Source: Acaryochloris marina MBIC11017
GTDB taxonomy: Bacteria; Cyanobacteriota; Cyanobacteriia; Thermosynechococcales; Thermosynechococcaceae
Assembly: GCF_000018105.1 (NCBI RefSeq)
Contig: NC_009927.1
Coordinates: 270,001-302,000 of the forward strand
Direction of reading: 5' to 3'
Length of the DNA stretch: 32,000 nt
This document shows positions 2,474 through 22,014 of the stretch, piece after piece. Every line of letters begins with the position of its first letter. Positions within the stretch are counted from its first letter, which is position 1. The notes beneath the pieces were generated by a model. It saw nothing but the letters and a program-made list of their open reading frames with translations. It was not told the origin of the DNA and ran no database searches. A program made the position numbers and the translations under genes.

Positions 2474-2678
2474 GGAGAGTTTGGTATTCCCTGAGAAATT
2501 GTCTTTATCTATGTCTATACAAGAATAGAGCCAAATTTAGAGAGTATGGACAGTACTGTGCAAGTGCAGACTATGAGTCAATTTAAAAGCCTGGGATCCT
2601 TGCTAAGGGCTACAGCAATAGCGGGACATACATCTTTGGATTCATCTGCAAAATCCGCTATCTTGTCGCGAGTGAGGA

Positions 2679-4844: not shown

Positions 4845-5473
4845 GTGCGATTCGTTGGCTAGAAACTAGACCTGAATAGGGTTTGAGGGGATTAGCCGCA
4901 AGCGTAAAGAAGGGGAAAATATCCCAACTGTACCTTGACAACTTAATAGCCATATAGGTGAGAGTCAGTATCCTAGACCGCTCTAGTCCTATCCCGCAGG
5001 TGCAGCGGTGACAGCATTTCCCCCAGGTTCGCGACTAGCCATCAACGCCTGAAGCGGGGAAAAAAGGAGGTAACAGGGAGCCTAGCTCTGAACCCCTTCG
5101 AGCAAGAACTTATGAGTAGCGAAAGCGAAGATGTGGTTAACCCACCGTAATCATTAACCAGCGAAATTAGGTTGATAACGCTGGGAGTCCCAAAAGGGCA
5201 AGGATATACGGAGCTGGCGTGTCCAGTAGCGACCAGTTAGCACTTCCAATAAACCCGGTGGAGCGCATCACTCTAACAGTTCAATCAATGGCTATTAGGA
5301 ACGAAGTAACCCCCGCCTATCTCTCTTGGAGGTCGATTGGCTAAGAGTAGGTGCTAACCAGAAGTTAGGCGGTGGGAAGGATTGGGTCAAAAGCAAAAGC
5401 CCCACTGTAATGGTGAGGATAAGCAGACAGACTCACGGTGACTTGGAATGAATAGGAACAAGTAGCAATAAAT

Positions 5474-7204: not shown

Positions 7205-7223
7205 CAAGCACCAAGCCACTGAG

Positions 7224-7257
7224 GAGCCGTGTAAATCGAAAGATTTACGCACGGTTT
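7224..7257 (+). ncRNA. group II intron domain V
   Basis: A 34-nt hairpin, GAGCCGTGTAAATCGAAAGATTTACGCACGGTTT, with the AGC catalytic triad at positions 2-4 and a GAAA tetraloop. Confidence 0.8.
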
Positions 7258-7298
7258 TGAAGCCAAGTCGGAGGAGTGATCCTCCGGCTTAGGTTAAC

Positions 7299-8117
7299 CA
7301 CGTTGAAAAGAAGTCGTTGTGCGTCTACTCGCAACTGAAAAACTGTTCCTCTTCTGAGGTTTCATCCATGCTCACTGGGCTGTTGCGACACAACACAGAT
7401 CTGAAGCTGGAGAAGAACTATGTTGATACTCATGGCCAGAGTGAGCTGGGCTTTGCCTTCTGCCATCTTCTGGGGTTTCAGTTGATGCCCCGTTTCAAAC
7501 GCATTGGTGTTCAAAAGCTCTCTTTGCCAGAGGCAGGAACGAAAGCAGCCTATCCCAATCTCAAGCTGATATTGTCGAAGGCGATTGACTGGGATCTGGT
7601 GGCTCAGCAGTATGACCAAGCCATCAAGTACGCGACGGCATTGAGGTTGGGGACGGCTGAGGCGGAAGATATTTTCCGGCGCTTTGGGAATGCGGAGATT
7701 CAGCATCCGACGCATAAGGCACTGCTGGAGATAGGCAAGGCGGTCAAAACTATTTTCCTGTGTCAGTATCTATCGTCTGAAGCACTCAGAGTGGAAATCA
7801 ATGAGGGGCTGAATGTGGTGGAACGATGGAATGGGGCCAATGACTTTATCTACTTTGGTCGGGGTGGTGAGTTCGCGACCAATAAGCGGGAGAATCAAGA
7901 GCTGTCGGCACTGGCCTTGCACCTGCTTCAAGTCAGTATGATCTACATCAATACGCTGATGATTCAGAATGTGCTCAGTGAACCACAATGGATGCAGAGA
8001 ATGAAAACAGAGGACTTGAGGGCTTTGTGCCCCCTGATCTGGAATCATGTGACGCCCTATGGATGGTTCAATCTTGATTTCACACAACGGATGGCACTCG
8101 ATGTTGCCTGGAGGTAA
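7299..8117 (+). CDS. tnpA: Tn3-family DDE transposase, exon 2 (272 codons + stop)
   Basis: The in-frame continuation HVEKKSLCVYSQLKNCSSSEV...VDTHGQSELGFAFCHLLGFQLMPRFK matches the conserved catalytic-domain pattern of Tn3 transposases (Y-x-HV..., DTxGQS, LLG..LMPR). Confidence 0.85.
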   Translation, partial: HVEKKSLCVYSQLKNCSSSEVSSMLTGLLRHNTDLKLEKNYVDTHGQSELGFAFCHLLGFQLMPRFKRIGVQKLSLPEAGTKAAYPNLKLILSKAIDWDLVAQQYDQAIKYATALRLGTAEAEDIFRRFGNAEIQHPTHKALLEIGKAVKTIFLCQYLSSEALRVEINEGLNVVERWNGANDFIYFGRGGEFATNKRENQELSALALHLLQVSMIYINTLMIQNVLSEPQWMQRMKTEDLRALCPLIWNHVTPYGWFNLDFTQRMALDVAWR

Positions 8118-8840: not shown

Positions 8841-9245
8841 GATTAAACGCAGCTCACCAATCTTAAACCCGTCAGTAAATTTAATCTTTTTGGGACTCAG
8901 AAGCTTCCACCCAGAGGTTTTGTATTCTACTGACCGGGAATGCTTCTTAAACCTTGGAAAGCCAACGGGTTTTATACCCCGTTTGTAATTCTCATAGAAA
9001 CGGGTGATTGAACTCCAAGCTCACTCAGCACTTGCCTGCCGAGCCATAGAGTTGAGTTGCTTAGCAAAAGGAAAATCATTGGCAAGAACTCTACACAACT
9101 TATTTAAGTCGTATTTGCCCGTACCTTTGTTATCCATCCAAAAGCGCAAGCACTTATTACGAATGAATTGAGCCGTTCTGATGGCTTCATCAATTGCACT
9201 TGCTTGATGCTTACTGGTTCTTGCTTTAAACTCTAGTACAATCAT
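8841..9245 (-). pseudogene. tnpB: IS200/IS605-family TnpB (OrfB) 5' fragment
   Basis: The N-terminus MIVLEFKARTSKHQASAIDEAIRTAQFIRNKCLRFWMDN is typical of cyanobacterial TnpB. An in-frame TGA follows codon 74. The frame then continues AWSSITRFYENYKRGIKPVGFPRFKKHSRSVEYKTSGWKL...FTDGFKIGELRLI and is cut off at the transposon end (8840). Confidence 0.75.
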
Positions 9246-9355: not shown

Positions 9356-9697
9356 TTATTTAGAGGGCTGTAGATAGTTCTCTAGCGCTTCAGTTACAAG
9401 AGCATTGAGATTGATTCCCCGCTGCTGAGCTGCGATCGCAGCCCGCCTATGAAGTTGAGTTCCAGGTCTAATATTGAAGCTGCCTTTGAAGGGACGTTCA
9501 GGCTCAATCTCGTTTTCAGTACAATCAGCAAGATATTCATCAACGGCTCCATGAAAAGCAGATTTCAAAGATTGAACATCAGTACCCTCATAGCTAATCA
9601 GGCTGCGGATGAACTCAACCTTCCCAAAAAATACTTCATCCTCATCACTGAAATTCACAGAGCCAAAGTAGCCTTGGTATTCCATCATATTTTTCAT
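9356..9697 (-). CDS. hicB: HicB-family antitoxin
   Basis: 113 aa with the pattern YQGYFGSVNFSDEDEVFFGKV...EGTDVQSL...AVDEYLADC...PFKGSFNIRPGTQLHRRAAIAAQQRGINLNALV, typical of HicB. It overlaps hicA by 4 nt. Confidence 0.85.
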   Translation of the reverse strand: MKNMMEYQGYFGSVNFSDEDEVFFGKVEFIRSLISYEGTDVQSLKSAFHGAVDEYLADCTENEIEPERPFKGSFNIRPGTQLHRRAAIAAQQRGINLNALVTEALENYLQPSK

Positions 9698-9960
9698 AGC
9701 AGCCCCTCCTGCTCAAGAATGTCCATGACTTGTTCAATCTGATACTTCTTTAATATTTTTTTTGGATGGGGTTTATGAAGGCTGATCACAAGCCCCTCTT
9801 CATTAATGAAGCGTCTTCCAGAACCACCCGTTTTACCCGTCGATACTTCAGAGAATTGAAAAAAGGAAAGCAACAAAACTAACTCGTCCCAGGTAAAGTC
9901 TTTGGGCCGTGTGAGAAAGCGTTTAATCAGCTTCTCTTTTCGAGTCATATTGGAGGTCAA
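9694..9960 (-). CDS. hicA: HicA-family mRNA interferase toxin
   Basis: 88 aa with KLIKRFLTRPKDFTWDELVLLL...GGSGRRFINEEGLVISLHKPHP...KKYQIEQVMDIL, matching the HicA/YcfA-like pattern. It lies upstream of and overlaps hicB. Confidence 0.8.
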   Translation of the reverse strand: MTSNMTRKEKLIKRFLTRPKDFTWDELVLLLSFFQFSEVSTGKTGGSGRRFINEEGLVISLHKPHPKKILKKYQIEQVMDILEQEGLL

Positions 9961-9992
9961 AACTGCTTATATTATCTCTGATGCCACAGGAA

Positions 9993-10016
9993 CTTGCAAC
10001 TAAAAATAGTTGCAAG
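9993..10016. promoter_or_regulatory. 9-bp inverted repeat between the upstream operon stop and the hicA start (terminator or operator)
   Basis: CTTGCAACT - AAAAAT - AGTTGCAAG, located 33 nt upstream of the hicA ATG and 9 nt downstream of the 10025 stop. Confidence 0.3.
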
Positions 10017-10024
10017 CAGTCAAT

Positions 10025-10672
10025 CTACCTCTGACTTACCCGAAGAGACTGGCTATAGAATCCTCCTCGCTGCTCCACCCGAAATCCACCCAAAAGCACC
10101 CCGATCAACACAGCCACGGGCGCAAAACCAAGCCCTCGCGCTAAGTCACCGAACAACACAGCATCCTCTTTACCCTCAAGAAAGTCATGGATCGCACCCA
10201 CCCAAGCGCCAACATCCTCCTCATGGCTGACCTTCAGAGCAACCGCCTCCCCACTCTCTAGCTCATCCACAAATTCCAACACATCATCCTTGCTAACCTC
10301 ACCCACGACGGACTCCACAGGCTTCCCCGTGAACCCATGACGTTGCTTCCGTGACTTCGGCTGACGGCAGAGATCCGACACGTCGAGGAACATGGTCTCT
10401 TGAACCAACCCGGCCAAGAAGTCATCATCCAGCACTGGTCCTTGGGTATTATGTCGATCCTCCCAATCCTGGATCAGCAGTTCTGCTCGTTGACAGACAA
10501 CATCAGCAATGTCCCTGATCGCATCCCCAGCTACCCGAAGCTGTTCATGTGATGACCGACCTTGCAAATGCTGATCGAGTGATGCACACATCAGGGAAAT
10601 ATCAGCTTGTTCCGGTTCATCCAAAGCAGAGGCCAAAGCACTGGCAAAATCTAGCTCAAGCTGTTTGAACAT
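10025..10672 (-). CDS. hypothetical acidic protein with hydrophobic C-terminal segment
   Basis: 215 aa. The ATG overlaps the upstream gene by 17 nt. A C-terminal stretch GLGFAPVAVLIGVLLGGF looks like a TM helix. No family recognised. Confidence 0.5.
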   Translation of the reverse strand: MFKQLELDFASALASALDEPEQADISLMCASLDQHLQGRSSHEQLRVAGDAIRDIADVVCQRAELLIQDWEDRHNTQGPVLDDDFLAGLVQETMFLDVSDLCRQPKSRKQRHGFTGKPVESVVGEVSKDDVLEFVDELESGEAVALKVSHEEDVGAWVGAIHDFLEGKEDAVLFGDLARGLGFAPVAVLIGVLLGGFRVEQRGGFYSQSLRVSQR

Positions 10673-11186
10673 GGCGCTTATCCTTCAGTGGACAGTCCAC
10701 AATTTCGCACTCAGAAGGCTCCATGCGAATCGGCGGTTCAAACTCTGTAATTCCGTATCGTTCTCGTAGTACCCTCAGCACCTCTTTCAAATACCGATTA
10801 ACTTGAGTATTGGTCATCCCCATACAATGGACAGCTTCAATTTCCGCTAACTTCTCACTCCCCTGCCAGACACTGACGGCCATGGCATGGAGATGGGCAT
10901 CCTTGGGTTTCTCCTTGTAGAGGTAGAGTAAAGCTACTGGAGGGGCTTGGACGGGAATCGAAAAGGTTTCTGTGGTCTCGGCTGGTGCTGGTTTTGAGTT
11001 CCTATCCCTGTAATGTGCTCGTTGTTTTTCATTGTTCTCCCTGCGATGCCGATAATGCGATCGCTTCCGGGGGCAAGTCTTAGGATTCCAACAAGCCGTT
11101 GTCGTTTCAGGTCCGTGGAGTGAGATCGCTTCCTTTTGGGAAAGCTTCGAGCACTCTAAACAAAGCTTGTTGATAGGGCGTCCCAT
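10656..11186 (-). CDS. hypothetical protein: N-terminal Cys4 cluster plus basic tract
   Basis: I trimmed the 240-aa ORF to the ATG at 11186, which lies 1 nt after the vapC stop and is preceded by GGAGGAGG. It has CLEC...C..KTC followed by RKRSHYRHRRENNEKQRAHYRDR, and a C-terminal helical part (TNTQVNRYLKEVLRVLRERYGI). No family recognised. Confidence 0.5.
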   Translation of the reverse strand: MGRPINKLCLECSKLSQKEAISLHGPETTTACWNPKTCPRKRSHYRHRRENNEKQRAHYRDRNSKPAPAETTETFSIPVQAPPVALLYLYKEKPKDAHLHAMAVSVWQGSEKLAEIEAVHCMGMTNTQVNRYLKEVLRVLRERYGITEFEPPIRMEPSECEIVDCPLKDKRHVQTA

Positions 11187-11187
11187 C

Positions 11188-11598
11188 TCAAGCCTCCTCC
11201 TGCCAGTTTTCCCAGGCCAGACCATCCACCCGTGAAAACTCCCGAACATTATCCGTGACCAGGGTGAGGTCGTGAACCAGAGCAATGGCTGCAATTTGCA
11301 AATCATAGGGACCAATGGGAGTGCCCTTCGCTGCAAGAGCTGCCCGGATCTGGCCACAGACTTTGGCAACCTCGTCATTAAACGGAATCGATTGGAACTG
11401 GCGATAGAAAAGCCTGAGACGTTCTAAGTTAGCCTGTCGTTTGACACTTTTATAAGCGCCATAGAACAATTCACTCTTCACCGGAACGCACAATCTAATA
11501 TCAGCAGGAGTGTATTGTGCTAAACGCTTTGCAATTGCAGAGTCCTGGTTAGCCTTAAGCAGTTGGATACAGGCGTTTGTATCCAGTAAATAGGTCAT
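11188..11598 (-). CDS. vapC: PIN-domain toxin VapC
   Basis: 136 aa with PIN acidic residues in LLDTNACI, KSELFYG, YDLQIAAIA and LVTDNVREF. It overlaps the upstream antitoxin by 4 nt. Confidence 0.9.
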   Translation of the reverse strand: MTYLLDTNACIQLLKANQDSAIAKRLAQYTPADIRLCVPVKSELFYGAYKSVKRQANLERLRLFYRQFQSIPFNDEVAKVCGQIRAALAAKGTPIGPYDLQIAAIALVHDLTLVTDNVREFSRVDGLAWENWQEEA

Positions 11599-11837
11599 GT
11601 CCAGTCCTCACGGATCTCAAACTCGCCCTGATCGGATCGCGTCAACTCTCCCTCCCAACTGCCGATCACATCTGAAAAGAAACCCGGTTGCCATTCTGTA
11701 GTGGTGGGGGCAGAGGATTCAGCCGGAGACAGTAGAACCGTCACCTCTAAATCGGCATCCGCAAACTCCGTGGGCACCTCTAAGCGAAGAACGCCATCGG
11801 CACCCACATGGGAGCGAATCGAAATGGGTTGGCTCAT
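11595..11837 (-). CDS. VapC-associated antitoxin (VapB-like)
   Basis: 80-aa ORF overlapping vapC (ATGA). The call rests on gene order, size and the C-terminal W.GE..R..QGEFE.RE tail common in cyanobacterial PIN partners. Confidence 0.65.
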   Translation of the reverse strand: MSQPISIRSHVGADGVLRLEVPTEFADADLEVTVLLSPAESSAPTTTEWQPGFFSDVIGSWEGELTRSDQGEFEIREDWT

Positions 11838-12033
11838 CGATCACCTAGTTCTCAAAAGTCAACAATGAGGCGATGGCTCTGAAGGTCTTGGGTGAAACAT
11901 GCCTCTGAACTAGTGTACAAGTCGCCCTTCTGATATGACATATTTTAATGTAATTTTTAATGTAAATAAGATATTAGACACATATTTTATGTTGAAATTC
12001 TCTCCTTCAAATAAAGGATGAATTTTCGTAGGT

Positions 12034-14256
12034 TTAGAACTGAGGGGGTAGGAACATCTGCTGTCGGATGGCATTCCAATCATTTACCGAGAGGCCACTC
12101 GCTTGTTTACTGCAGTCGATCATGAGCTGGCAGGTTGAGAAGTAGTTGGTAAGCATTTGCAGGTCATCTTTGGACAAATCAAAGAGTTCTTGAGAGATAT
12201 TTAGAGACGAGCTGACTATTGATGTGAGTCCTTTAGATGAAGTTTTTAAGGCATGTGATGAATTTTTTAGACATGAGATGAGGGTTTGAAGTTCAACATC
12301 TACCATTAGTTTCTTATCCAGGGCAAATTGGGCCATGGCGAGAACGTTGCCGCGAGCGAAAGCGCTGGCCAGAGCGAGGTCGCTTGCGAGGGTGTCGTCG
12401 AGGGCATGGTCGAGGGCGACGTCCAGATTGAGGCCGCTTGAGAGGTTGCTTGCGAGGGCACGAACACTGGCGAGGTCGCCAATGGTGGCTATGGCTTTGG
12501 CTCGTTCGCTTTCACGTAAGCTGGCGATGACACTTGCACTGCTGGCAAAGCGTTCCCGGTCGCGGTCGCGGGCAAGGGCGACATCGAGGGCGAGAGCAAG
12601 GTCTAAGTCGAGAGCGAGGGCGAGAGTGAGGGCAATGGTGAGGTCAAAGATTAATATTAGGGTAAATACTCGTCTAATCTCACCAGAAAAGTCACTGATA
12701 GCAGTAGATGTCTTTGACTCAACCCAGGCTAGCAATCCGCTTAATTTAGGGTATTCAGAAAGCGCTTGAGTTTGTTCTTCCAATTGTTGCAAGAATTCGA
12801 TCGCAGAATGTCCTTTCAGCTCAGTTACGAGAAGAAAGACTCCTCGCCAATGCTTATCTGCGGCATGATTCTGAATTAATTGATCTTCGTAGCTCCAGTT
12901 TCTAATATACTCAGCGCAAAGATGTTCTTGAAGCGTTAGGTGAGAGAAAGAATAAATATCTGTAGCCTGCTTGACTAAGATCCCCGACTGCACTGCGATC
13001 TCTTCCATCAGTTTATTGACATCAAGATGCTTGGAGACATTCAAATTATTGGTCAAAAAGGCTGTAATCTGCTCAGCTAATTCATCTTTTTCAAAAAAAA
13101 GCTTGTCTTCTTCAAAGCCAACATAGGCGATTGACGCCAGCATATCTTTTTTTATATCAGCGCTGAAATCTTGATAGATTTCCCAGTTCTCATCCATTAA
13201 TTTTGAATTGGCCCAATCTTTTAATGAGAAGTCTAGTGCCTTGGAATAGAGTTTGGCCTGATTGTCGATAATTGTCTTTCCCTGTCGGCAGACTAAACAG
13301 ATGAACGCCAGCAGCAACGGGGTTTGGGGTAGTTCCTTCGTATAAATAAAGTCAGGTTCTTTGAGTTGTTCCCAAATCGTATTTACATATTCTGCCTTTT
13401 TCTCACGGGTCAGTTGGGGGTTGGGATCAGCATCAAACCATTTTTTGATGAATTCAAAGATCTGATCATCATCAAGTTCTGCAATAGCAACCGTTTTAAA
13501 TCCAGTGAAGTAAGTGGGATAAGCAGCGATTCGGCAGGAGGTAATAAATCGATTATTAGAGTATCGGTCTGAGAAATCTATAATGGATTGAACCACTTGA
13601 TTGAAACTACCGCTGAGTACTTCATCTAGTCCATCCAAGAGAATCAGAAAATCACCTGATTTGAGGGCATGATCAGTAAATTGTTCTGGTTTAGGAAAAC
13701 CACAAATCTCAAACTCTTCAGCAATAGATTTTTTGAGGTCTAGGTCTGGATCTCGTAATCGCTTCAAGTCCAAAAATACGGGAATTTTCTCATGGTCGTA
13801 ACTTTCCACATTCCTAAGTAGGGCTGCTAAGCCAACTTTACGGAGATAGGTGGTTTTACCAATCCCTGGACCGCCCAACACGCAGAGATATTGCTCTGTG
13901 TTTTCAACCGCTATCCCTTTCTGTTTAGCCTCTGTTTGCTGCCATAAATATCTTTGATGGGCTTCTCGGTATACTTTTTCTAGTCTTTCAATACTCTCTA
14001 GAATTTTGACCGTCTCAGCATCCATCATCTTGACGTTGGTGTAGATGTCATCAAAGGATATGGACTGCGACATCCCTAGTACTTGGATCTGACCATGACG
14101 CTTATAGTAATTTTGAGCATAGATCTCTGACAAGTTGTATATTTGCTGTTCTACTGATATCAGAGGCTGATTTTCAAGGAATTGACCAAAGACTTTGAGA
14201 CTAATACTAACAAGTCCTGTTACAGCAGTTTCTAAAGTTTTTCCCTCCAGTGACAC
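12034..14256 (-). CDS. NACHT-domain STAND NTPase with helical/low-complexity C-terminal region
   Basis: 740 aa. Walker A is VLGGPGIGKTTYLRKV and Walker B is FLILLDGLDEV. It has the NACHT-type FSHLTLQEHLCAEY motif, a pre-NACHT RHGQIQVLGM...FDDIYTNV segment, and a C-terminal Ala/Leu/Asp-rich segment and tail (...TNYFSTCQLMIDC...IRQQMFLPP). Confidence 0.9.
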   Translation of the reverse strand: MSLEGKTLETAVTGLVSISLKVFGQFLENQPLISVEQQIYNLSEIYAQNYYKRHGQIQVLGMSQSISFDDIYTNVKMMDAETVKILESIERLEKVYREAHQRYLWQQTEAKQKGIAVENTEQYLCVLGGPGIGKTTYLRKVGLAALLRNVESYDHEKIPVFLDLKRLRDPDLDLKKSIAEEFEICGFPKPEQFTDHALKSGDFLILLDGLDEVLSGSFNQVVQSIIDFSDRYSNNRFITSCRIAAYPTYFTGFKTVAIAELDDDQIFEFIKKWFDADPNPQLTREKKAEYVNTIWEQLKEPDFIYTKELPQTPLLLAFICLVCRQGKTIIDNQAKLYSKALDFSLKDWANSKLMDENWEIYQDFSADIKKDMLASIAYVGFEEDKLFFEKDELAEQITAFLTNNLNVSKHLDVNKLMEEIAVQSGILVKQATDIYSFSHLTLQEHLCAEYIRNWSYEDQLIQNHAADKHWRGVFLLVTELKGHSAIEFLQQLEEQTQALSEYPKLSGLLAWVESKTSTAISDFSGEIRRVFTLILIFDLTIALTLALALDLDLALALDVALARDRDRERFASSASVIASLRESERAKAIATIGDLASVRALASNLSSGLNLDVALDHALDDTLASDLALASAFARGNVLAMAQFALDKKLMVDVELQTLISCLKNSSHALKTSSKGLTSIVSSSLNISQELFDLSKDDLQMLTNYFSTCQLMIDCSKQASGLSVNDWNAIRQQMFLPPQF

Positions 14257-14476
14257 TGTTCTCTAATCCCCCAATAATATTGACTTTGATTATTATTAAT
14301 TGAATACGTTGATTCTCATATATTCCTTGGATTTAATTCATAAAAAGCATGAGCGATAGAGTAGGAAAGATGTATATATTTCTCTTCTTATTTGTTACTC
14401 AGCCTGCATAATAAACCTCAAAATTGCCGTACTTCTTCCCAATAATTTTTATGATATCTGGCTGCAATGCCATTGA

Positions 14477-14499
14477 TATGTTATTACAGTATGTTATAA
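14477..14499 (+). promoter_or_regulatory. candidate operator: tandem direct repeat upstream of the antitoxin gene
   Basis: TATGTTATTA cag TATGTTATAA, 26-48 nt upstream of the 14525 ATG. AbrB-type antitoxins commonly autoregulate through such repeats. Confidence 0.25.
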
Positions 14500-14524
14500 C
14501 GTTGGTATTGCTTGGTTTAGCGCT

Positions 14525-14848
14525 ATGACTGATAAAACTTACAAGGCATCTTGGGCCAAAATTGGGAATTCCTCTGGCTATCGGATCACGAGTGATTTCT
14601 TCCGGGAACATCCCGAGTTCGTTGGTTCAGATGGGGTTATCCAAGTCATTGCCCCAGACACCGTTGTCTTTTCACGCGCGAAGACGGAGGAAGAAGGCCA
14701 GGAGGAAGATGATCTAATGCTCAGTCTCTACCTGGACTTTCTAACCAAACAGGCCCTCGCTAACCCTGATGAGTTGGAAGAATATACTCAGGACATGGCC
14801 GATGAGGACGAAGAGTTAATCGCGGGTGTGATCCTCGATGCTGATTAA
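14525..14848 (+). CDS. prlF: AbrB/SpoVT-fold antitoxin, PrlF-like
   Basis: 107 aa. The N-terminus AKIGNSSGYRITSDFFREHPEF resembles a swapped-hairpin DNA-binding fold, and the C-terminal tail is acidic. It overlaps the YhaV-like toxin gene. Confidence 0.65.
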   Translation: MTDKTYKASWAKIGNSSGYRITSDFFREHPEFVGSDGVIQVIAPDTVVFSRAKTEEEGQEEDDLMLSLYLDFLTKQALANPDELEEYTQDMADEDEELIAGVILDAD

Positions 14849-15281
14849 TGACTGGAATATTTACTTTCTCAAACGCCTGTTTGGACAACAACGTTTGGCA
14901 TTAAGGACTGAAGTAAAGCGACTGAAAGCCACTCTACCGCCAGAAGACTATGTACGCCATCCCCAGGTGAAGCTCTATGCTGCTACCATGCAGGCGATCA
15001 AAGCGAAAATTCCAGCCGATCCCTTTGCGTCTCATTTTGCGTTGACTGGACCTCTCAAGAAGTTTGGTCGGGTGAAAAAGATGGGGATTCCTAATCGATA
15101 TCGGTTATTTTTTCGAGCGTTTAAAGTCCCTGAAAGTCAGTCCATCTTCGTCCTATGGTTGGGTTATCCCCGTAAGGAAGGTGATAAGAAGGATTGCTAT
15201 CGAGCGTTTCGAAAAATGGTTGAGCGGGGTGATTTCCCTGATTCTTTGGATGATTTGATGGTTGAAAGTGAGCAAGGTTGA
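14838..15281 (+). CDS. yhaV: YhaV-family ribonuclease toxin
   Basis: 147 aa. RYRLFFRAF, ...IFVLWLGYP... and DCYRAFRKMVERGDFP match, from memory, the E. coli YhaV motifs RYRLFFRY and DAYTVFSKMLKRGHPP. Confidence 0.7.
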   Translation: MLINDWNIYFLKRLFGQQRLALRTEVKRLKATLPPEDYVRHPQVKLYAATMQAIKAKIPADPFASHFALTGPLKKFGRVKKMGIPNRYRLFFRAFKVPESQSIFVLWLGYPRKEGDKKDCYRAFRKMVERGDFPDSLDDLMVESEQG

Positions 15282-16936
15282 TGAGTAAAAATTATGGGGT
15301 AGATATCCCGGAAGTCAAACTCATCACCTTCCCCACGACGGAAGCGGATCAAGCACCGTCTCCAAAATCCATCCGTCGAGGCAGACCGACACAGATTCCC
15401 ACTCCGATGGATATCCGCTGGCCGATGGTTCAGGAGTTCCTACGTAACAGCAATTTATCCCCCAATTCTCAAAAGCTCTATGAACGGGAGCTTAAACGGT
15501 TCTTGGGCTGGACCCATTTTCGATGGTCGGATCTGACGCTTCGGCATCTGGGCCAATACAAAGTCTACCTGATGGAGCTAAAGGTCGCTGAAGGAAAGAC
15601 GCTCTCCAAAAACAGTCTCAATAGTGCCTTAACGGCCCTCAAGAGCTTCTTCAAATGGCTGACCCAGTTTCACCCGGAGCTATGCCCGACCAATCCCACC
15701 AAAGGGGTGAAGTTTGAGAAGGTGCCTTTGCCCCCGGCCCAGAATTTGACCCCGGAGGAGATGACGCGAGTCTGGGATGCGATCACACAGCGGGAACAGA
15801 CCCAACTGAGAGACCTGGCCCTAGTGCAGTTGCTCAGTCATAACCTTCGAGCGGGGGAAGTAGTAACCGCCAATGTGGGGTCTTTTGATGGCCGATTGAT
15901 TAGTATTACCAAAACCAAGAATAACCAACCTCGACTCGTGCCCCTTTCAACGGAAGGGCAGCAGGTGGTTCAGGAGTATCTAGATTGGCGAAAGGATCAA
16001 CAAGGGGAAGCGTTATCGGCTGAGTCTCCGTTGATTCTGTCCCACCACCAGGGCTGGGAAGGGCAACGCCTGAGTTATCACGGGGTCTATTTTGCTGTGG
16101 AGGATATCGGCAGATTAGCTGAACTCCCCGATCTTCACCCCCATCAGTTTCGACATACAAGTGCGACTGAATATTTGCGAATGGGGTTAGACCCGGCTCA
16201 TGCCCGACGATTAACAGGGCATACGGATGAGCGGTCCTTTCGACGGTATACGGTGGCAGCAGAACAAGAGGCTGCGATCACTGCGTTTTACCGGGCGGAA
16301 AAGGAGGGGCAACCTTTAGTCTTTGCCCAGTCGTTGGACCGGAAGCAGCGTCAATTGCTGGAGGCACTAGCAGAGATGACGGGGAAGCCTCCCCTGTACC
16401 AAGATGATTTGGATGAAGGGATCATTGATTTTGCTCAGCTCTGGCAGGAAAACTTACAGGAACTTGAGCTATTAGTGGCTGATGTGCGGGCTTTGCCAGA
16501 AAAGCTGGGACTGAGAGGTTTTGTGAAAAATGAGCGGCAGTCGACATCGCTAGAAGAACGGGTCCTGCGTGGCGAAATACCGACCAATGAGGTGCTTCAG
16601 TTAGATCCTGTCGTCGAAGAGCCTTCGGACTGTCCCCAGGTAAGGTCTGTGGAGAGTTCTCATCAAGTCATTCATTTGGGTATGAAGCTCTGGGTTAATG
16701 GGAAGAAAAAAGGCAAAGTTAGGAAAGCGATTGAGGAGCGGGTACTCGAACAGTTTCAGATGGTCAAGCGGAAACCGCGAGGAAATGAATACCAGCTAAC
16801 GGTTGAGGTTGAGGAAGACGATGACTTGCCAGCGATCCTCTCTCAGATGAAGTGGGAGATGGAGGTTCTGGGAGAGTTGGATGAATGTTTGGTTGAAGTA
16901 AAGCTCAATGACGAAGCCAAGAAGGGTAAACCCTAA
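15278..16936 (+). CDS. tyrosine recombinase/integrase with ~200-aa C-terminal extension
   Basis: 552 aa. The core-binding-like N-terminus has SPNSQKLYERELKRFLGW. Catalytic residues are NLRAGEV (Arg), HPHQFRHTSAT and GHTDERSFRRY. Residues ~350-552 have no recognisable domain. The start overlaps the yhaV stop (ATGA) and the stop overlaps the WD40 start (TAATG). Confidence 0.85.
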   Translation: MMSKNYGVDIPEVKLITFPTTEADQAPSPKSIRRGRPTQIPTPMDIRWPMVQEFLRNSNLSPNSQKLYERELKRFLGWTHFRWSDLTLRHLGQYKVYLMELKVAEGKTLSKNSLNSALTALKSFFKWLTQFHPELCPTNPTKGVKFEKVPLPPAQNLTPEEMTRVWDAITQREQTQLRDLALVQLLSHNLRAGEVVTANVGSFDGRLISITKTKNNQPRLVPLSTEGQQVVQEYLDWRKDQQGEALSAESPLILSHHQGWEGQRLSYHGVYFAVEDIGRLAELPDLHPHQFRHTSATEYLRMGLDPAHARRLTGHTDERSFRRYTVAAEQEAAITAFYRAEKEGQPLVFAQSLDRKQRQLLEALAEMTGKPPLYQDDLDEGIIDFAQLWQENLQELELLVADVRALPEKLGLRGFVKNERQSTSLEERVLRGEIPTNEVLQLDPVVEEPSDCPQVRSVESSHQVIHLGMKLWVNGKKKGKVRKAIEERVLEQFQMVKRKPRGNEYQLTVEVEEDDDLPAILSQMKWEMEVLGELDECLVEVKLNDEAKKGKP

Positions 16937-17829
16937 TGCACATTGTCTCTGGACATCTAGATTGTGTCTCTGGTATTAGTGTTAGCCCTGATGGTCAAAC
17001 CCTCTTCTCTGCATCCTGGGACAAGACTCTGAAGATTTGGGAGCTGGCAACGGGTCGGGAGCTGAGTATACTCTCTGGACATACTGACTTCGTTTCTGAT
17101 GTGATGATCAGCCCTAATGCTCAGACTCTGGTCTCTGCATCTTGGGATATGACTTTGAAGGTCTGGGAGTTGGAGACAGGCAAGGTAAGGCACACCCTTA
17201 CTGGGCATACTGACTTCGTCAATGGCATCAGCATCAGCCCTGATAGTCAAATCCTCGTCTCCACGTCTTGGGATGGGACATTAAAGGTTTGGGAGCTAGA
17301 GACGGGCAAGGAGCTGCATACCCTCAATGGTCACACTTTTTCAGTCCATAGCGTCAGTATCAGCCCCGATGGTCAGACTCTCGTTTCAGCATCTAGTGAC
17401 AAGACCTTAAGGGTTTGGGAGCTAGCAACAGGCCGGGAGCTGGGCATCCTCAAGGGTCATTCTGACTCTGTATCTGATGTGAAGATCAGCTCTGATGGCC
17501 AGACCCTCATCTCTTCATCTAGTGACAACAGCCTTAAGATTTGGGAGTTAGCAACAGGTCGTGAGTTGGGTATTCTCAATGGACATACTGACTCTGTCAT
17601 TGGCATCAGCATCAGTCCCAATGCTCAAACCCTCGTCTCTACATCTTTGGATAAGACCCTCAAAGTCTGGGATCTGCAGACGGGTAAAGAAGTAATGAGT
17701 TTTTCTGGCGAAAGTGCATTTAGTTGTTGTGAGATCGCCCTGGATGGTCACACAGTTGTTGCTGGAGATTTTGATGGAAAACTTTACTTTTTTTCTCTAG
17801 AAGATCTAAGTTTTTCCGATGAGCACTAG
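16936..17829 (+). CDS. stand-alone WD40 beta-propeller protein (about 7 repeats)
   Basis: 297 aa made almost entirely of 42-aa units of the form GHTDxVxxxxISPDGQTLVSASxDKTLKVWELxTGxEL. There is no N-terminal domain; the protein begins inside the first repeat. Confidence 0.92.
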   Translation: MHIVSGHLDCVSGISVSPDGQTLFSASWDKTLKIWELATGRELSILSGHTDFVSDVMISPNAQTLVSASWDMTLKVWELETGKVRHTLTGHTDFVNGISISPDSQILVSTSWDGTLKVWELETGKELHTLNGHTFSVHSVSISPDGQTLVSASSDKTLRVWELATGRELGILKGHSDSVSDVKISSDGQTLISSSSDNSLKIWELATGRELGILNGHTDSVIGISISPNAQTLVSTSLDKTLKVWDLQTGKEVMSFSGESAFSCCEIALDGHTVVAGDFDGKLYFFSLEDLSFSDEH

Positions 17830-18168
17830 AGCACTTAAACTCCGTCCTAGTATGCATTCCAGAGATAAAGGTGTTATCTTTTCGTGTAAGTTTTTGGGTA
17901 ATGCAGATAAGAGGGATTATTTGGAGTAGAAATAACTACTAAAATACCCTTGCTGCTATAAGAAGGTTTTTGAAACGTGGTTTTGAGATTATGGAGGAAG
18001 GAAGGATGTTCTGTAACTCGGGTTTTGAACATTAAAAGGCAATAGTTTAGGTCAACAGAATAAAAACCCGAAGCCCTTTATAACTATTTTAGTTTGTATC
18101 GCTTGAATGACATACAGGGAATGGATTTCAGTTTAATCAACCTCTAAAATAAAAACTGAAATGAGTTG

Positions 18169-21100
18169 CTAGGGACAACTAACTACATTCGTAAAGGGAC
18201 TAGAAGGAGTTCCAGGAGGAACCAACGTGCCATCGAAGCTGAAGATTGCATTATTATTGTCAAGACTGACAGTTGTTAAACTTTCCACCTGGAAAGGACT
18301 CCTCGCAGAGATTAGATTAAAATCTAACCCTCCTGCCATTGCAACGTTGGGATTATCACTACGATTGCCAGAAATAGCAGCACAGATGGGATTAACATCA
18401 TAATTTCCTATCCGTAAACTATCCTGTCTTGCTTGAATCCGTACACTGTCCCGCCCTGCTTGAAGGATTTTATTATTAGAAATAGTAGCGGATTGGATGG
18501 CTCCATTGCCAACAGGCCTTACTAAGATACCGTCAGCATTTTTCCCTGACGTCGAAACCGTGTTTCCAGAGATAGTCGCTTTATTGATAGTGCTGTCTAT
18601 GTATGGCTGGACCCTAATACCAGCAGCATTGAATCTATCCGTTGAGACAGTGTTACCTGAAATAGTCGCAACGGTGATTGTACCGTTTTGGGAAGGTTGA
18701 ACGTTAATGCCATAGGCAAGTCCAGTTGTCGAGACGGTATTTCCAGAGATGATCGCAGTGGATATAACGCTATTAGTAGTAGGCCTGATATTAATACTGG
18801 CAGTTGTACTAGGAATAGTAAAGAAAGGTCTTAAAACCATATCATCAGAAATTAATCCAGCTGTTGAAATTTTATTTCCAGAGATGGTCGTGGTGGTAAT
18901 AGCACTGTTATAGCCGGGTCGGAGCAAGATCCCATCAGCAATTCCAGTAGTCGAGACAGTATTTTCAGAGATGCTTGCGGTAGTAATAGTACTTTTATTG
19001 AACGGCTCAACCAAAATGCCATAAGAAAAGATTCTATCCGTTGAGACGGTGTTTCCAGAGATAGTAGCAGTAGTGATGACACTGTTGTAGATAGGCCGAA
19101 CGGAAATACCCTGAGAGTTCAATCCTGCTGTTTCCACCGTATTTCCAGAGATGTTAGCGGATTGAATAGTACTATTATTGGAAGATTGAACCACGATGCC
19201 GTCAGATTGTACTCCATTTGTTTCAATCGTATTTCCAGAGATAGTAACGGATTGAATAGCACTATCATTCAAAGACTGAATCACAATGCCGTCAGTACTG
19301 ATCCCTGTTGTTTTAATTGTGTTTTCAGAGATGACTACACGGTCCAAATTGATGTTGGATAAGCTGAGAGAAATACCGTGAGATATACCTGGAGCAGCAG
19401 GATCAACAAATATAGGGTTCCTGGTAATCTGGTTATTAATAATTTCAGCAGAACCTGTTATGTTCTCTAATTTGATGCCTGGAGAAAAGTCTCTCCCGAT
19501 AACAATAATCTGATTGTTCTGCACCCTAACATTACGAACGTTACGGCCAAAGATGCCTCGATTGCCTGAAAAATCTACGTTGTTGGGTAAAGGGGCTATG
19601 TTTAAATTTGCGATGGTAGTATTATTTCCCAGCACCACTCCATCTCTTCCCGTGCGTTGGATGCGGCTCCCTGAGGTACCTACAATTCGAACTGAGCCTG
19701 TAGACGCACTAACATTGCTAATATCCACTCCTGCCATCGCAGGGTTATCAATATTAATCGCGTTATTGTCAAGATTGAGTGAGCCACTAATGCCATTGAT
19801 TGAGATGCCATTGGTAGTTGAATTTGTACTAGCAAGACTATTATCTATAACAGTCGCAGTAGTAATGTTGTTAGCTACTAATGCTGGGGCACCCGTTACC
19901 TGTACATCAAACCCTGAGAGCAGCGTGTTATTCCCCAAACTGACGGTACTAGTGATGCGAGGGAAGCTACTATCGCCAGAGAAGGGAAGTTGAACCTGGC
20001 CTAGCCTAAGAACACTCTCTGGCCGCAATGGGAATGAAATGGGGTTAACATCAATCTGCTGTACAGCTCCTCTTGAACGAACTTGTACCTTGTCAGGAAT
20101 CGTAAATCCTTCAATACCTGAATTTATCCCATTTGCTACATAAACGATGTCATTCCCATCCCCCCTTATCACTCCTAGTGCATCTTCCAAGCTAGGAAAT
20201 GGTGATTCAAAGGTGCCATCGCTATTGCCCAAACCTAAGTTGACATGGTGAAAAAACCATGGCTCTCCCGTGGTTGGGTTCATTGCTGCAACCGTTTGAG
20301 TCTCAGTTTCAAGAAGTTCTGTAGTGTTGGGGGTATCTACAATTATGCTGTTGTTGCGAATGACTGAATCACCCATTCGTGCCACAACATTGTTCGCTGG
20401 TGAAACTGGGCTTTGAGGCTGATTTACTGAGAGTGTAAAGGTGATATTTCCCAACACATGGGTGCCGAAAAAATCATCATGCTGAATTCCAATTCCACCA
20501 CTGATATTAGGAGTAGGTCGTACCTGTAAGCGCAACCGACCTCCAATCGTATTACCTCGAATACTGCTATGGAGAAAGTAAGGGCCTAGGTATGCTCGTA
20601 AATCACCTCCATTCTTAAAACTAAGGAGTTGTTTTCCAACTTCAAAGTCCACTCCGGCCAAGGCTTCTTCAAATTGACGCGTAATCAGACGTCGCCGCAG
20701 CAAGTCTAAAAGTAGAATATTCCCAGTAAATCGAGGGTCACCATTAAGTTGCAATACCTCAAAAATACGTTGCCTGGTTTGGCGGCGAGTACTGCCAACG
20801 GGCCAATACCCATTCAGGTGAAGGTCAACATCCTTTCCGAGACTCTCTATACCCAAGCTCAATTGCTGGAAGGTATTATTATCAGTGTTACGAATATCAA
20901 AACCTAGATGACCACCAAATATACGTTTTAGATCATCACTATACTGACGGAAGCCGAACAGAATATTTCCACCTGGGTTGCCCTGGTCATCTAGCAGGAG
21001 ACGGCCTTCGAAGAAGGTCAATGCTCGACCCGGCTTCTGCCAAACAGGAACAAAGGTTTCGAGGCGAGTGGTGGTGTTTGTACCACTGCTGGGGCTATTC

Positions 21101-21237
21101 GCGCCAATACCGAAGCGAGGCGAGAAGCGTAGGTCAGAGGCTTGAGTTGAAGGTTGAGGCTCAGCGATCGTAGGCAGGCTATAAAAAACAGTAAGGGTAA
21201 TCGCTGTGATGGCTATGCGATCGCAAAATAATGCCAT
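18169..21237 (-). CDS. inverse-autotransporter-like outer-membrane adhesin with parallel beta-helix repeat passenger
   Basis: 1022 aa with a signal-like N-terminus. Residues ~35-280 resemble the intimin/invasin beta-barrel domain (GANS...TRLETFVPVWQ..., GFDIRN..., LHLNGYWPVG). They are followed by more than 10 ISGNTVST.G... repeats typical of right-handed beta-helices. Confidence 0.7.
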   Translation of the reverse strand: MALFCDRIAITAITLTVFYSLPTIAEPQPSTQASDLRFSPRFGIGANSPSSGTNTTTRLETFVPVWQKPGRALTFFEGRLLLDDQGNPGGNILFGFRQYSDDLKRIFGGHLGFDIRNTDNNTFQQLSLGIESLGKDVDLHLNGYWPVGSTRRQTRQRIFEVLQLNGDPRFTGNILLLDLLRRRLITRQFEEALAGVDFEVGKQLLSFKNGGDLRAYLGPYFLHSSIRGNTIGGRLRLQVRPTPNISGGIGIQHDDFFGTHVLGNITFTLSVNQPQSPVSPANNVVARMGDSVIRNNSIIVDTPNTTELLETETQTVAAMNPTTGEPWFFHHVNLGLGNSDGTFESPFPSLEDALGVIRGDGNDIVYVANGINSGIEGFTIPDKVQVRSRGAVQQIDVNPISFPLRPESVLRLGQVQLPFSGDSSFPRITSTVSLGNNTLLSGFDVQVTGAPALVANNITTATVIDNSLASTNSTTNGISINGISGSLNLDNNAINIDNPAMAGVDISNVSASTGSVRIVGTSGSRIQRTGRDGVVLGNNTTIANLNIAPLPNNVDFSGNRGIFGRNVRNVRVQNNQIIVIGRDFSPGIKLENITGSAEIINNQITRNPIFVDPAAPGISHGISLSLSNINLDRVVISENTIKTTGISTDGIVIQSLNDSAIQSVTISGNTIETNGVQSDGIVVQSSNNSTIQSANISGNTVETAGLNSQGISVRPIYNSVITTATISGNTVSTDRIFSYGILVEPFNKSTITTASISENTVSTTGIADGILLRPGYNSAITTTTISGNKISTAGLISDDMVLRPFFTIPSTTASINIRPTTNSVISTAIISGNTVSTTGLAYGINVQPSQNGTITVATISGNTVSTDRFNAAGIRVQPYIDSTINKATISGNTVSTSGKNADGILVRPVGNGAIQSATISNNKILQAGRDSVRIQARQDSLRIGNYDVNPICAAISGNRSDNPNVAMAGGLDFNLISARSPFQVESLTTVSLDNNNAIFSFDGTLVPPGTPSSPFTNVVSCP

Positions 21238-21328
21238 AACTTAGCTCCTTAATTTTCAGGAAAGGAAATGGAACGATGCTGAGGGGAAATTATAATCTGA
21301 TAAATGATTTCGGATTTTGTGTGTAACC

Positions 21329-21434
21329 TACCTGAAATAGCTACTTTTTAGTTTAGTAGTTAGCGTTAATAAGGTCTTGATTAAGACAAATTATTAAGTA
21401 TTATCTTGTTGATATTTATTACCTGAAATAGCTA
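21329..21434. repeat. two exact copies of the 15-mer TACCTGAAATAGCTA, 91 bp apart, upstream of the adhesin gene
   Basis: Exact copies at 21329-21343 and 21420-21434. A related TACCTGAAATCGCCTA lies at 29019-29034. Confidence 0.5.
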
Positions 21435-21608
21435 ATTAACAGAGTGGCCAAATGTCATTAGATTAGAGTTTTGAGATAAATTAGGGAATTCTTTGAATTA
21501 TTAGATAACCCTAAATTAGCTAAAATAATTTGCACCTAATATAGGTCTGATGAAAGGTAAACTCCCATCTGTAAGAATTATCCAAAAATTCAAGAAACTA
21601 CAAGGCCC

Positions 21609-21733
21609 AAATCAACTGCCCTGCTGCAAGCAGACGGGGTATGGAATACGATTTGCTCCCAAACCGTAGATTTGAATTGCAATTCCATTTCTTCGCTGCA
21701 AGCAGCGGGGAATCTACCCTCACTAGATTGAAG
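21609..21733 (+). repeat. ~125-nt structured repeat, copy 1 (MITE or small RNA)
   Basis: About 95% identical by eye to the reverse complement of 26445-26567, and more distantly related to 29781-29899. It contains the hairpins CTGC...GCAG and GAATTGCAATTC. Confidence 0.7.
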
Positions 21734-22014
21734 GGCCGCTGACACCAGCTTCAATCAAACACTTTTAGGGGCTTGAAACGACGCAAATACGTTCGAGAAG
21801 AATCCAAATTATTACTAAAGGCTAAAGAAAATTGAGAAATACTAAGGCCTGAAGTCCTTTCTCTGTATAGCTTCTAGCTTTCGTTGCAGTTGGTATCAGC
21901 AACTCTTCAATTGGGCCAAAGTGATAAAAATGTTAGTGTCCTTATTTATTCGCCATGGACTGAGATAGCTGAAATGCTTTGATAATAGAGAATTCAGAGC
22001 ACTCCTTGATGAAC

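Follow-up and report, generated by a model that had tools for sequence, protein, structure and literature searches.

A plasmid tyrosine recombinase with its own candidate DNA site, exchangeable toxin-antitoxin cassettes and probable later passengers in an Acaryochloris megaplasmid

Introduction

Do five tightly packed genes on a cyanobacterial plasmid make up a single system, or have genes of different origin come to lie side by side? The question is raised by a locus of Acaryochloris marina MBIC11017, in which a NACHT gene of the STAND NTPase type diverges from four overlapping genes encoding a PrlF-like antitoxin, a YhaV-family toxin, a tyrosine recombinase and a stand-alone WD40-repeat protein. 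The DNA analysed here, called the window, is a stretch of 32,000 nt (contig NC_009927.1, positions 270,001 to 302,000 of the forward strand), and coordinates are window positions unless a plasmid or another locus is named. An earlier note, made from the sequence, had proposed two ways in which these genes could work together: as a split NLR-like conflict system, or as an integrative module stabilised by its toxin-antitoxin (TA) pair, with a recombinase regulated through a WD40 partner. We are fairly confident that the five genes do not form one five-part system. The region is probably the mosaic maintenance core of the megaplasmid pREC1, built around an old unit of TA genes and a recombinase with its own DNA site, in which the NACHT and WD40 genes would be later passengers.

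Plasmid recombinases that act beside addiction genes have precedents. On the F plasmid, ccdA, ccdB and resD form an operon with the site rfsF, and the attI site of integrons combines an inverted core with two direct repeats. In other plasmids, rfsF-ResD adjoins vagCD (IncR) and rfsF-RsdB adjoins ccdAB (pSLT), and foreign DNA has been inserted just downstream of rfsF (PMC9412624).

Results

Recurrent neighbours of the recombinase

All five open reading frames (ORFs) described in the earlier note are present (Table 1), and the overlaps between the four plus-strand genes are real. The antitoxin and toxin genes overlap by 11 nt; the YhaV stop codon TGA (15279-15281) shares one base with the recombinase ATG within the sequence TTGATGA; and TAATG (16934-16938) comprises both the recombinase stop and the WD40 start. 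The position of the second junction, given before as ATGA at 15278, was slightly off, as the recombinase start in databases and RefSeq is 15281, and the view that the coupling marks one functional unit does not stand. Positions 9900-18200 match plasmid pREC1 of A. marina MBIC10699 at 100%. pREC1 is a circular, conjugative plasmid of 393,608 bp (MOBF/MPF_T typing); recombinase and WD40 proteins of identical sequence are encoded on GCA_024347835.1 AP026076.1.

Gene neighbourhoods were surveyed at 80 genome loci and three contigs with the closest recombinase relatives (83 loci in total, cited by L numbers), and the neighbouring ORFs were clustered. Two genes that lie to the left of the five recur most widely. 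Homologs of the first, encoding a Cys-rich protein (~155 aa), are found near the recombinase in 66 of the 83 loci, and homologs of the second, encoding a winged-helix protein (~234 aa), in 53. Neither WD40 nor NACHT is a family-wide neighbour. YhaV-type TA genes do recur, the adjacency of NACHT and recombinase is recurrent though facultative, and the WD40 gene is confined to this plasmid lineage. The NACHT gene is absent from L009, L015, L089 and L091 and the WD40 gene from L089, L090 and L091, a distribution that speaks against the split NLR model. The proposal of a TA-coupled recombinase fares better: a PrlF-YhaV-recombinase operon recurs in relatives, but a WD40 protein as its dedicated partner does not.

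A candidate recombination site with co-varying direct repeats

DNA comparison with close relatives revealed a conserved non-coding element at 11942-11996. Its flank towards the partner genes is formed by two tandem direct repeats, which are followed by a candidate core site (Table 1). The core is unique in the window, with none expected in shuffled sequence. When the DNA immediately before the Nostocales recombinase genes was scanned for strict inverted repeats, almost nothing was found; the site emerged with relaxed arms and a search extended to 2.5 kb. With this relaxed pattern, 53 of the 83 loci show exactly one site on the strand of the recombinase gene, which it precedes by 20-2340 bp, and there are only 13 other matches in 924 kb, both strands counted. 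Across loci the arms of the site are conserved and the spacer is variable, and arm type and spacer length shift with the recombinase subfamily. Inverted arms around a 6-8-bp spacer are what is expected of the cognate core of a tyrosine recombinase, and the predicted 9-7-9 site has this form. A second module on pREC1, whose recombinase core is 39% identical, has the same site layout with other arms and a 6-bp spacer (CAGATAA-GGCGTG-TTATTTG); this pairing of a different site with a divergent recombinase indicates that the core site co-varies with the recombinase.

The direct repeats behave differently. Most related loci also have two copies, of a locus-specific sequence in which both copies are altered together (variants include AATGTAA, CGTGTAA, CGCTAGA, AGTCGTA, AGTCTAA and ATCGTA/ATCGGA); L089 is without clear direct repeats. 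Compared across loci, the global identities of the recombinase, the Cys-rich and the winged-helix proteins do not track the repeat type. Where a locus has no recombinase nearby, a pair of repeats can still be present directly before the Cys-rich gene, which ties the repeats to the partner gene pair. The right arm of the core, for its part, abuts a promoter-like -35/-10 pair. As judged from its sequence, the whole element fits a candidate recombinase core with accessory binding sites, overlapping divergent promoters.

A plasmid family of recombinases with a modular tail

The catalytic set of the recombinase is complete, as had been noted before, and its residues R190, K213, H288, R291, H314 and Y323 are invariant in 18 homologs. 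The protein scores 81.2 bits with PF00589 (Phage_integrase; cut-off 27.1) and consists of a SAM-like domain (aa 51-130), a catalytic domain (aa 156-330), a helical module A (~aa 354-408), a linker and a ferredoxin-like module B (~aa 462-543). XerC and XerD are the best-scoring curated models, and they have in common with the window recombinase the SAM-like and catalytic layout and the R-K-H-R-H-Y set. However, the NCBIfam equivalog cut-offs are far from reached (TIGR02224, 115.6 against 335; TIGR02225, 101.3 against 329.6), and unlike XerC/XerD the window recombinase is single and plasmid-borne, with its own, non-dif candidate site and a C-terminal tail.

By length, the homologs can be sorted into four classes. 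Those of ~340 aa belong to Nostocales, many of them plasmid-borne; those of ~420 aa add tail module A; those of ~530 aa, from Acaryochloris relatives, have modules A and B; and those of ~735 aa carry a fused PRiA4_ORF3 as well. In PLSDB, searched in six frames, 60 cyanobacterial plasmids encode a member of the family, nearly always a single one, and several co-resident plasmids of one strain do so.

The tail of the window recombinase comprises ~210 residues with no Pfam match, in agreement with the earlier remark that the extra C-terminal residues contain no recognised domain. In the AlphaFold model it has a mean predicted local distance difference test score (pLDDT) of 79.6, with a three-helix module A (85-91), a disordered linker and a module B of beta-alpha-beta-alpha-beta order (91-97). 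A known phage-integrase accessory domain, considered as a candidate, is not what the tail contains: a fold search of the PDB gave generic ferredoxin-fold matches, including the aIF2-alpha C-terminal domain and AsnC-RAM, at E ~1e-3 and with poor superposition. Module B and PRiA4 also occur on a recombinase whose core is only 29% identical, so that module B acts like a portable C-terminal unit.

The Cys-rich and winged-helix partners

The Cys-rich partner, probably a zinc ribbon, has five residues (C8, C11, H23, C31 and C37) that are invariant in 20 homologs. The winged-helix partner is modelled by AlphaFold with a mean pLDDT of 71, rising to 83-88 in its C-terminal domain. In profile searches neither protein gave a significant Pfam match or a PDB sequence match, and the PDB fold search of the latter gave generic winged-helix matches only (E >0.04). 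A kleisin identity was rejected for this protein, ScpA ranking 32nd in the fold search with E 0.23. In the window the two genes form a leftward operon, on the strand opposite to the recombinase operon; in most Nostocales loci they are on the same strand, after the recombinase. The winged-helix gene is present once per plasmid on most Acaryochloris plasmids, and twice on pREC1. The pair often lies close to ParA/ParB or ParM, and partition genes are nearby in the PCC 7120 alpha and A. marina S15 plasmids.

Four plasmids of A. marina S15 and 'Moss Beach' (L104-L107) share a near-identical block in which separate NB-ARC, TIR and TPR genes diverge from the Cys-rich/winged-helix pair. The spacer between them, of 313 bp, contains two direct repeats and no inverted core. 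This looks like a genuinely multi-gene STAND arrangement.

Exchangeable toxin-antitoxin cassettes upstream of the recombinase

The YhaV assignment of the toxin is firm (PF11663, 157.5 bits against a cut-off of 35, E 2.7e-46). The PrlF matches of its partner are weak (PF15937, 22.3 bits against 32; NCBIfam PrlF, 25.7 against 125); the antitoxin-toxin order and the overlap of the two genes are present. The 107-aa PrlF-like gene is kept upstream of YhaV in L009, L015, L089 and L091. PrlF and YhaV lie upstream of the recombinase in L009, L015 and L089, with YhaV abutting the recombinase start in L009 and L089; in L091, PrlF-YhaV is followed by a 175-aa gene and MazEF, and then by the recombinase. 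The overlap of the YhaV stop with the recombinase start is kept in L089, L009 and L016, whose YhaV is 47% identical to that of the window, and this conservation indicates that PrlF-YhaV-recombinase is a genuine recurrent operon. Its candidate promoter overlaps a palindrome-like element; the corresponding region in relatives reads TTGAAA...TATAAC and ACGTTAT-N11-ATAACGT. A consensus promoter scan did not list the candidate at 14473-14500, of which the -10 hexamer ends in C.

Across the survey, the slot between site and recombinase holds PrlF/YhaV, MazEF, HigB/HigA, XisH/XisI, a 128-aa gene with an HNH nuclease, and others, all co-oriented with the recombinase. The distances from site to recombinase fall into classes of ~70-120 bp, 650-1100 bp, 1400-2300 bp and 4-6 kb, which match the cassette content. 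On the other flank of the site in the window, VapB, VapC, the Cys-rich and the winged-helix genes run leftward with tight junctions, so that VapBC heads the operon, and HicAB follows downstream on the same strand after a 64-bp gap.

XisH/XisI, which are named as excision-controlling factors of the fdxN element, are directly upstream of the recombinase in 12 Nostocales loci (including L038, L039 and L044). They may act on this recombinase or may be just another addiction-like pair.

The NACHT gene is an insertion next to the site

In L009, L015, L089 and L091 the sequences corresponding to 11943-11996 and to 14472 onward are contiguous, and the site joins the PrlF promoter directly, with no NACHT gene between them. 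The NACHT block (~2.5 kb, ~11997-14479) can thus be recognised as an insertion right after GTTGAAA, and since a promoter comes straight after the site in more distant relatives too, the NACHT-less state is the ancestral one. L090 has a NACHT gene at the same position, with neither a TA pair nor a WD40 gene; it is 54% identical to that of the window, against 79-94% for its neighbouring genes, which suggests a cassette replacement. Acaryochloris provides three cases of a NACHT paralog beside the recombinase/partner module, namely the window, L090 and the second pREC1 module. Other paralogs with this architecture are solitary genes by conjugation genes on pREC3, pREC4 and an S15 plasmid, with no WD40, TA or recombinase genes nearby. 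Rather than a dedicated system of NACHT and recombinase, we see here a hot spot at which STAND genes have settled repeatedly.

The NACHT protein itself (PF05729, 36.5 bits against 26.7) had been described as lacking both an N-terminal effector and a repeat sensor array. Both absences are borne out, no Pfam domain being found over residues 1-110 and no repeat array in five paralogs; its C-terminus, on the other hand, is not domain-less, as it matches NCH2 (39 against 27). The RefSeq start is at 14073 (679 aa), and the GTG at 14256 adds 61 residues. This longer N-terminus is homologous in four paralogs, including those of pREC3 and the second pREC1 module, a conservation that makes the annotated start probably too short. 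All five paralogs consist of a conserved N-terminus, the NACHT module, a hypervariable LALD-type repeat segment and NCH2. In the window gene, 12-nt periodic repeats at 12235-12650 encode this low-complexity 'LALD/ARD' segment, whose length and sequence differ per paralog, and which could be a hypervariable recognition or spacer region. The window gene has in common with bacterial NACHT proteins related to NLRs (bNACHT) the NACHT module and C-terminal helical NCH2, and it is likewise multi-copy, fast-evolving and plasmid-borne. It differs in having no PADLOC match, no effector and no repeat sensor, with the LALD-type segment in their place. It is probably a single-gene conflict or defence protein.

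The WD40 gene appears to have replaced the end of the recombinase

As the earlier note had observed, the WD40 protein has no effector, NTPase or other further domain. Six of its repeats are recognised by Pfam, and inspection of the sequence adds a seventh that is divergent; seven WD repeats would make a complete propeller. The gene follows the recombinase only in this plasmid lineage, on contigs of identical sequence, and the recombinases of L089, L090 and L091, 87-88% identical, are not followed by it.

Homology between the window recombinase and its relatives ends at ~16905, just past '...ECLVEVKL'. Beyond this point the A. thomasi recombinase and the pREC3 paralog have a linker that leads to a fused PRiA4_ORF3 domain, L090 has split PRiA4 ORFs, L089 has a 25-residue PRiA4 remnant and L091 simply ends. 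From this comparison, the WD40 gene appears to have replaced the C-terminal PRiA4_ORF3 module of the recombinase. It was acquired with its own leader of ~30 nt (16906-16935), which contains the ribosome-binding-site-like motif AAGAAGGG and forms the last nucleotides of the recombinase gene; an in-frame stop lies three codons upstream of the WD40 ATG. Given that the final ~31 nt of the recombinase belong to the acquired segment, the TAATG overlap is a by-product of the fusion. A homolog search with the WD40 protein found no close homolog, the best matches being ~44-55% identical. The gene was also considered as a recent fragment of a larger gene and rejected as such: the matches are generic, STAND-WD40 giants are 35-42% identical, and there is no evidence of a donor gene.

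A second module and an orphan site on pREC1

The second pREC1 module (L101/L102, 135.5-141.3 kb) has a 654-aa recombinase with module B and fused PRiA4, divergent from a NACHT gene. Its order is recombinase, NACHT (72% identical to that of the window), the site with the 6-bp spacer, and the Cys-rich and winged-helix genes; beyond the recombinase lie a HicAB pair, a KAP NTPase and, several kb off, a 1920-aa nSTAND1-WD40 gene. Just past the WD40 gene, the window contains an orphan site, which over 140 bp shares 73.6% identity (E 3e-17) with the site region of this second module (L101:8271-8409; pREC1 ~140 kb). It has the same orientation as the site at 11942-11990, so that the two bracket 11942-17923. 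They should not recombine with each other, given their different arms and spacer lengths. The orphan site suggests a trace of a past rearrangement between modules, or of the fusion of two replicons.

Mobile elements around the locus

Upstream of the locus, 1577-8117 is occupied by mobile elements: first a 298-aa tyrosine recombinase gene beside a Tn3-family transposase gene (2679-4862), then a group II intron and its reverse transcriptase (5474-7204, with the Rfam intron domain at 7222-7298), and lastly another Tn3 transposase fragment (7317-8117). A 74-aa ORF at 9021-9245, read by eye, resembles the N-terminus of IS605/IS1341-type TnpB and is probably a fragment. Downstream, 18169-23786 contains the gene of a 1022-aa repeat protein, inverse-autotransporter-like by its RefSeq name, together with an ISL3-family transposase gene (22098-23786). 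An integrative element at a tRNA gene was considered and rejected, there being no tRNA in the window.

Table 1. Positions of the genes and DNA elements of the locus in the window
Feature	Position	Strand	Basis and details
HicA (9694-9960) and HicB (9356-9697)	9356-9960	-	Pfam HicA/HicB, RefSeq names
Winged-helix partner protein, 215 aa	10025-10672	-	N-terminal helical region, disordered middle, C-terminal winged helix
Cys-rich partner protein, 176 aa, probably zinc ribbon	10656-11186	-	Conserved homologs
VapC (PIN; 11188-11598) and VapB-like (11595-11837)	11188-11837	-	PIN E 1.8e-16; RefSeq VapC family toxin
Two tandem 12-bp direct repeats, ATTTTAATGTAA TTTTTAATGTAA	11942-11965	+	Tandem Repeats Finder: 100% match, 1.9 copies
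Candidate core site, ATAAGATAT-TAGACAC-ATATTTTAT	11966-11990	+	9-bp inverted arms, 7-bp spacer, then GTTGAAA
NACHT-NCH2 STAND NTPase gene, 740 aa	12034-14256	-	Pfam
Candidate PrlF-operon promoter, TTGATA-16 nt-TATAAC	14473-14500	+	Inferred; overlaps palindrome-like element
PrlF-like antitoxin, 107 aa	14525-14848	+	Weak PrlF matches, Pfam and NCBIfam
YhaV-family toxin, 147 aa	14838-15281	+	PF11663
Plasmid-family tyrosine recombinase	15281-16936	+	551 aa from ATG 15281 (552 aa from TTG 15278); Pfam, NCBIfam
Stand-alone WD40 protein, 297 aa	16936-17829	+	Pfam; repeat period 126 nt
Orphan second site	17879-18016	+	Repeats 17879-17901; core CAGATAA-GAGGGA-TTATTTG at 17904-17923, 6-bp spacer, plus flank

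Discussion

The unit that we consider ancestral at this locus would have three parts: a DNA site of two direct repeats and a 9-7-9 inverted-repeat core (11942-11990); a rightward operon, its promoter overlapping the right side of the site, with the plasmid-type tyrosine recombinase as its last gene; and an operon for the Cys-rich and winged-helix proteins. The two inverted arms would each be occupied by a recombinase monomer, with strand exchange taking place over the 7-bp spacer, and the direct repeats would be bound by an accessory factor, most likely the Cys-rich or the winged-helix protein. Reading the DNA in this way, we infer that the likeliest function is site-specific recombination at 11966-11990 for the resolution of plasmid multimers, with one site per replicon copy, co-expressed with addiction modules. 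Binding at the site may also repress the operon. The promoter-proximal slot on each flank of the site would gather exchangeable TA cassettes, such that post-segregational killing and multimer resolution are expressed together. To this unit two lineage-specific additions would have been made, the NACHT-NCH2 cassette between the site and the TA promoter and the WD40 gene in place of the PRiA4 module.

Several observations weigh against this reading. With its two modules and its orphan site, pREC1 exceeds what simple resolution at one site would need. Recombinase and partner genes can also be separated: the distance between them is 22 kb on CP071722, and on pREC4 and four further plasmids the partner pair has no recombinase in its vicinity. 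The site could be a mere operator, or a piece of a replication origin. The presence of NACHT in the same slot in three modules may point to some functional tie to the module.

A question remains, could the five proteins act together after all? As a split NLR-like system, the WD40 protein would be the sensor, NACHT the switch, and YhaV and/or the recombinase the output. The genes are adjacent, those on the plus strand are coupled, the NACHT protein has no repeat sensor of its own, its paralogs adjoin recombinase modules three times in Acaryochloris, and the separate NB-ARC, TIR and TPR genes by the same partner pair indicate that multi-gene STAND systems exist here. Nevertheless, we regard this model as very improbable. 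NACHT and WD40 co-occur in this plasmid lineage only; NACHT is found without WD40 or a TA pair in L090, and without an adjacent stand-alone WD40 or PrlF/YhaV in the second pREC1 module; none of the five NACHT paralogs has a repeat array and several stand alone; YhaV/PrlF can be swapped with unrelated TA types; and the WD40 gene arrived by a fusion that truncated the recombinase. PADLOC has no match for the NACHT protein, the TA pair or the recombinase, and gives the WD40 protein a generic repeat match only. More narrowly, the WD40 protein might be a new regulatory or adaptor partner of the recombinase that functionally replaces PRiA4_ORF3. The slot after module B holds a variable module in relatives (PRiA4, fused or as a separate ORF), the WD40 protein is intact with its seven repeats and translationally overlapped with the recombinase, and STAND-WD40 genes lie near two other recombinase paralogs. 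We still think this improbable: the arrangement occurs once, no close WD40 homolog was found, the nearby STAND-WD40 proteins are identical at 35-42%, the generic level for WD40 repeats, and L091 and L089 have no intact module at that position.

The site itself may be read in other ways. One is that the recombinase inserts or exchanges circular cassettes (TA, NACHT) at the site, in the manner of integrons or rfsF, or excises the segment between two sites. The cargo varies and always lies between site and recombinase; NACHT was inserted immediately past GTTGAAA beside the core, and a partial arm-like sequence, TTATGATAT (14449-14457), is present at the other end of the insertion; the L090 NACHT gene is far more divergent than its flanks; the direct repeats with an inverted core recall integron attI; and two sites of the same orientation bracket 11942-17923. 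Foreign DNA is also inserted just downstream of enterobacterial rfsF (PMC9412624). Such capture nonetheless seems unlikely to us, as there is no second intact site and no attC-like element between cassettes, the recombinase reaches 35.5 bits with the integron-integrase model, whose cut-off is 265, and the two sites of the window, with their different arms and spacer lengths, should not recombine together. Moreover, the cassettes lie downstream of the promoter with varied leaders, and ordinary recombination between conserved flanks gives the same pattern. Somewhat less likely still, in our view, is that site and recombinase constitute an attC-less, integron-like hot spot on cyanobacterial megaplasmids that recruits and swaps addiction modules and STAND genes (NACHT in the window, NB-ARC/TIR/TPR by the partner pair of other plasmids) beside the plasmid core. 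A different reading, which we hold to be possible if not favoured, makes the direct repeats and the two small proteins a determinant of replication or copy control (incompatibility), with the recombinase and core site as mere neighbours. The partner pair is present once per plasmid, with plasmid-specific repeats immediately upstream even where no recombinase is near; it lies close to ParA/ParB; and the cumulative GC skew of the window has its minimum at ~11-12 kb, the position of the site. Yet there are only two repeats, the partner proteins have no similarity to known initiators, and the GC skew gives an irregular signal, in which gene orientation and the NACHT repeat segment are confounding factors. 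This reading is also compatible with a maintenance core built on multimer resolution, and does not replace it.

How does the proposed maintenance unit compare with known systems? Integron integrase and attI likewise place a tyrosine recombinase by an inverted core and direct repeats, with variable cassettes, often TA, beside the site. They differ in that the cassettes here precede the recombinase gene and have its orientation, attC-like repeats are absent between them, and the cut-off of the integrase model TIGR02249 is not reached. Closer in arrangement are the systems of the rfsF/ResD type, in which a plasmid tyrosine recombinase has its site beside a type II TA pair, as in the window. Their recombinase, TA and site sequences are unrelated to those found here, and the proposed window module has co-varying direct repeats, two extra partner proteins, a ~210-residue recombinase tail and a TA pair that is exchangeable across the family.

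The locus is not to be pursued as a new defence architecture, as the candidate immune, NLR-like arrangement does not hold. What it does present is a module of a tyrosine recombinase, a well-defined candidate target site, two small partners of DNA-binding type and an exchangeable TA slot, for which literature searches found no description in cyanobacteria. The module is apparently undescribed, and it is widespread on large cyanobacterial plasmids (Nostoc, Anabaena PCC 7120, Calothrix, Leptolyngbya, Pseudanabaena, Acaryochloris). If site and recombinase are active, they would explain the monomeric, stable state of these megaplasmids as well as the pile-up of TA and defence genes at one place on the plasmid, and with their natural spacer and arm variants they would offer orthogonal recombination tools for cyanobacterial engineering.

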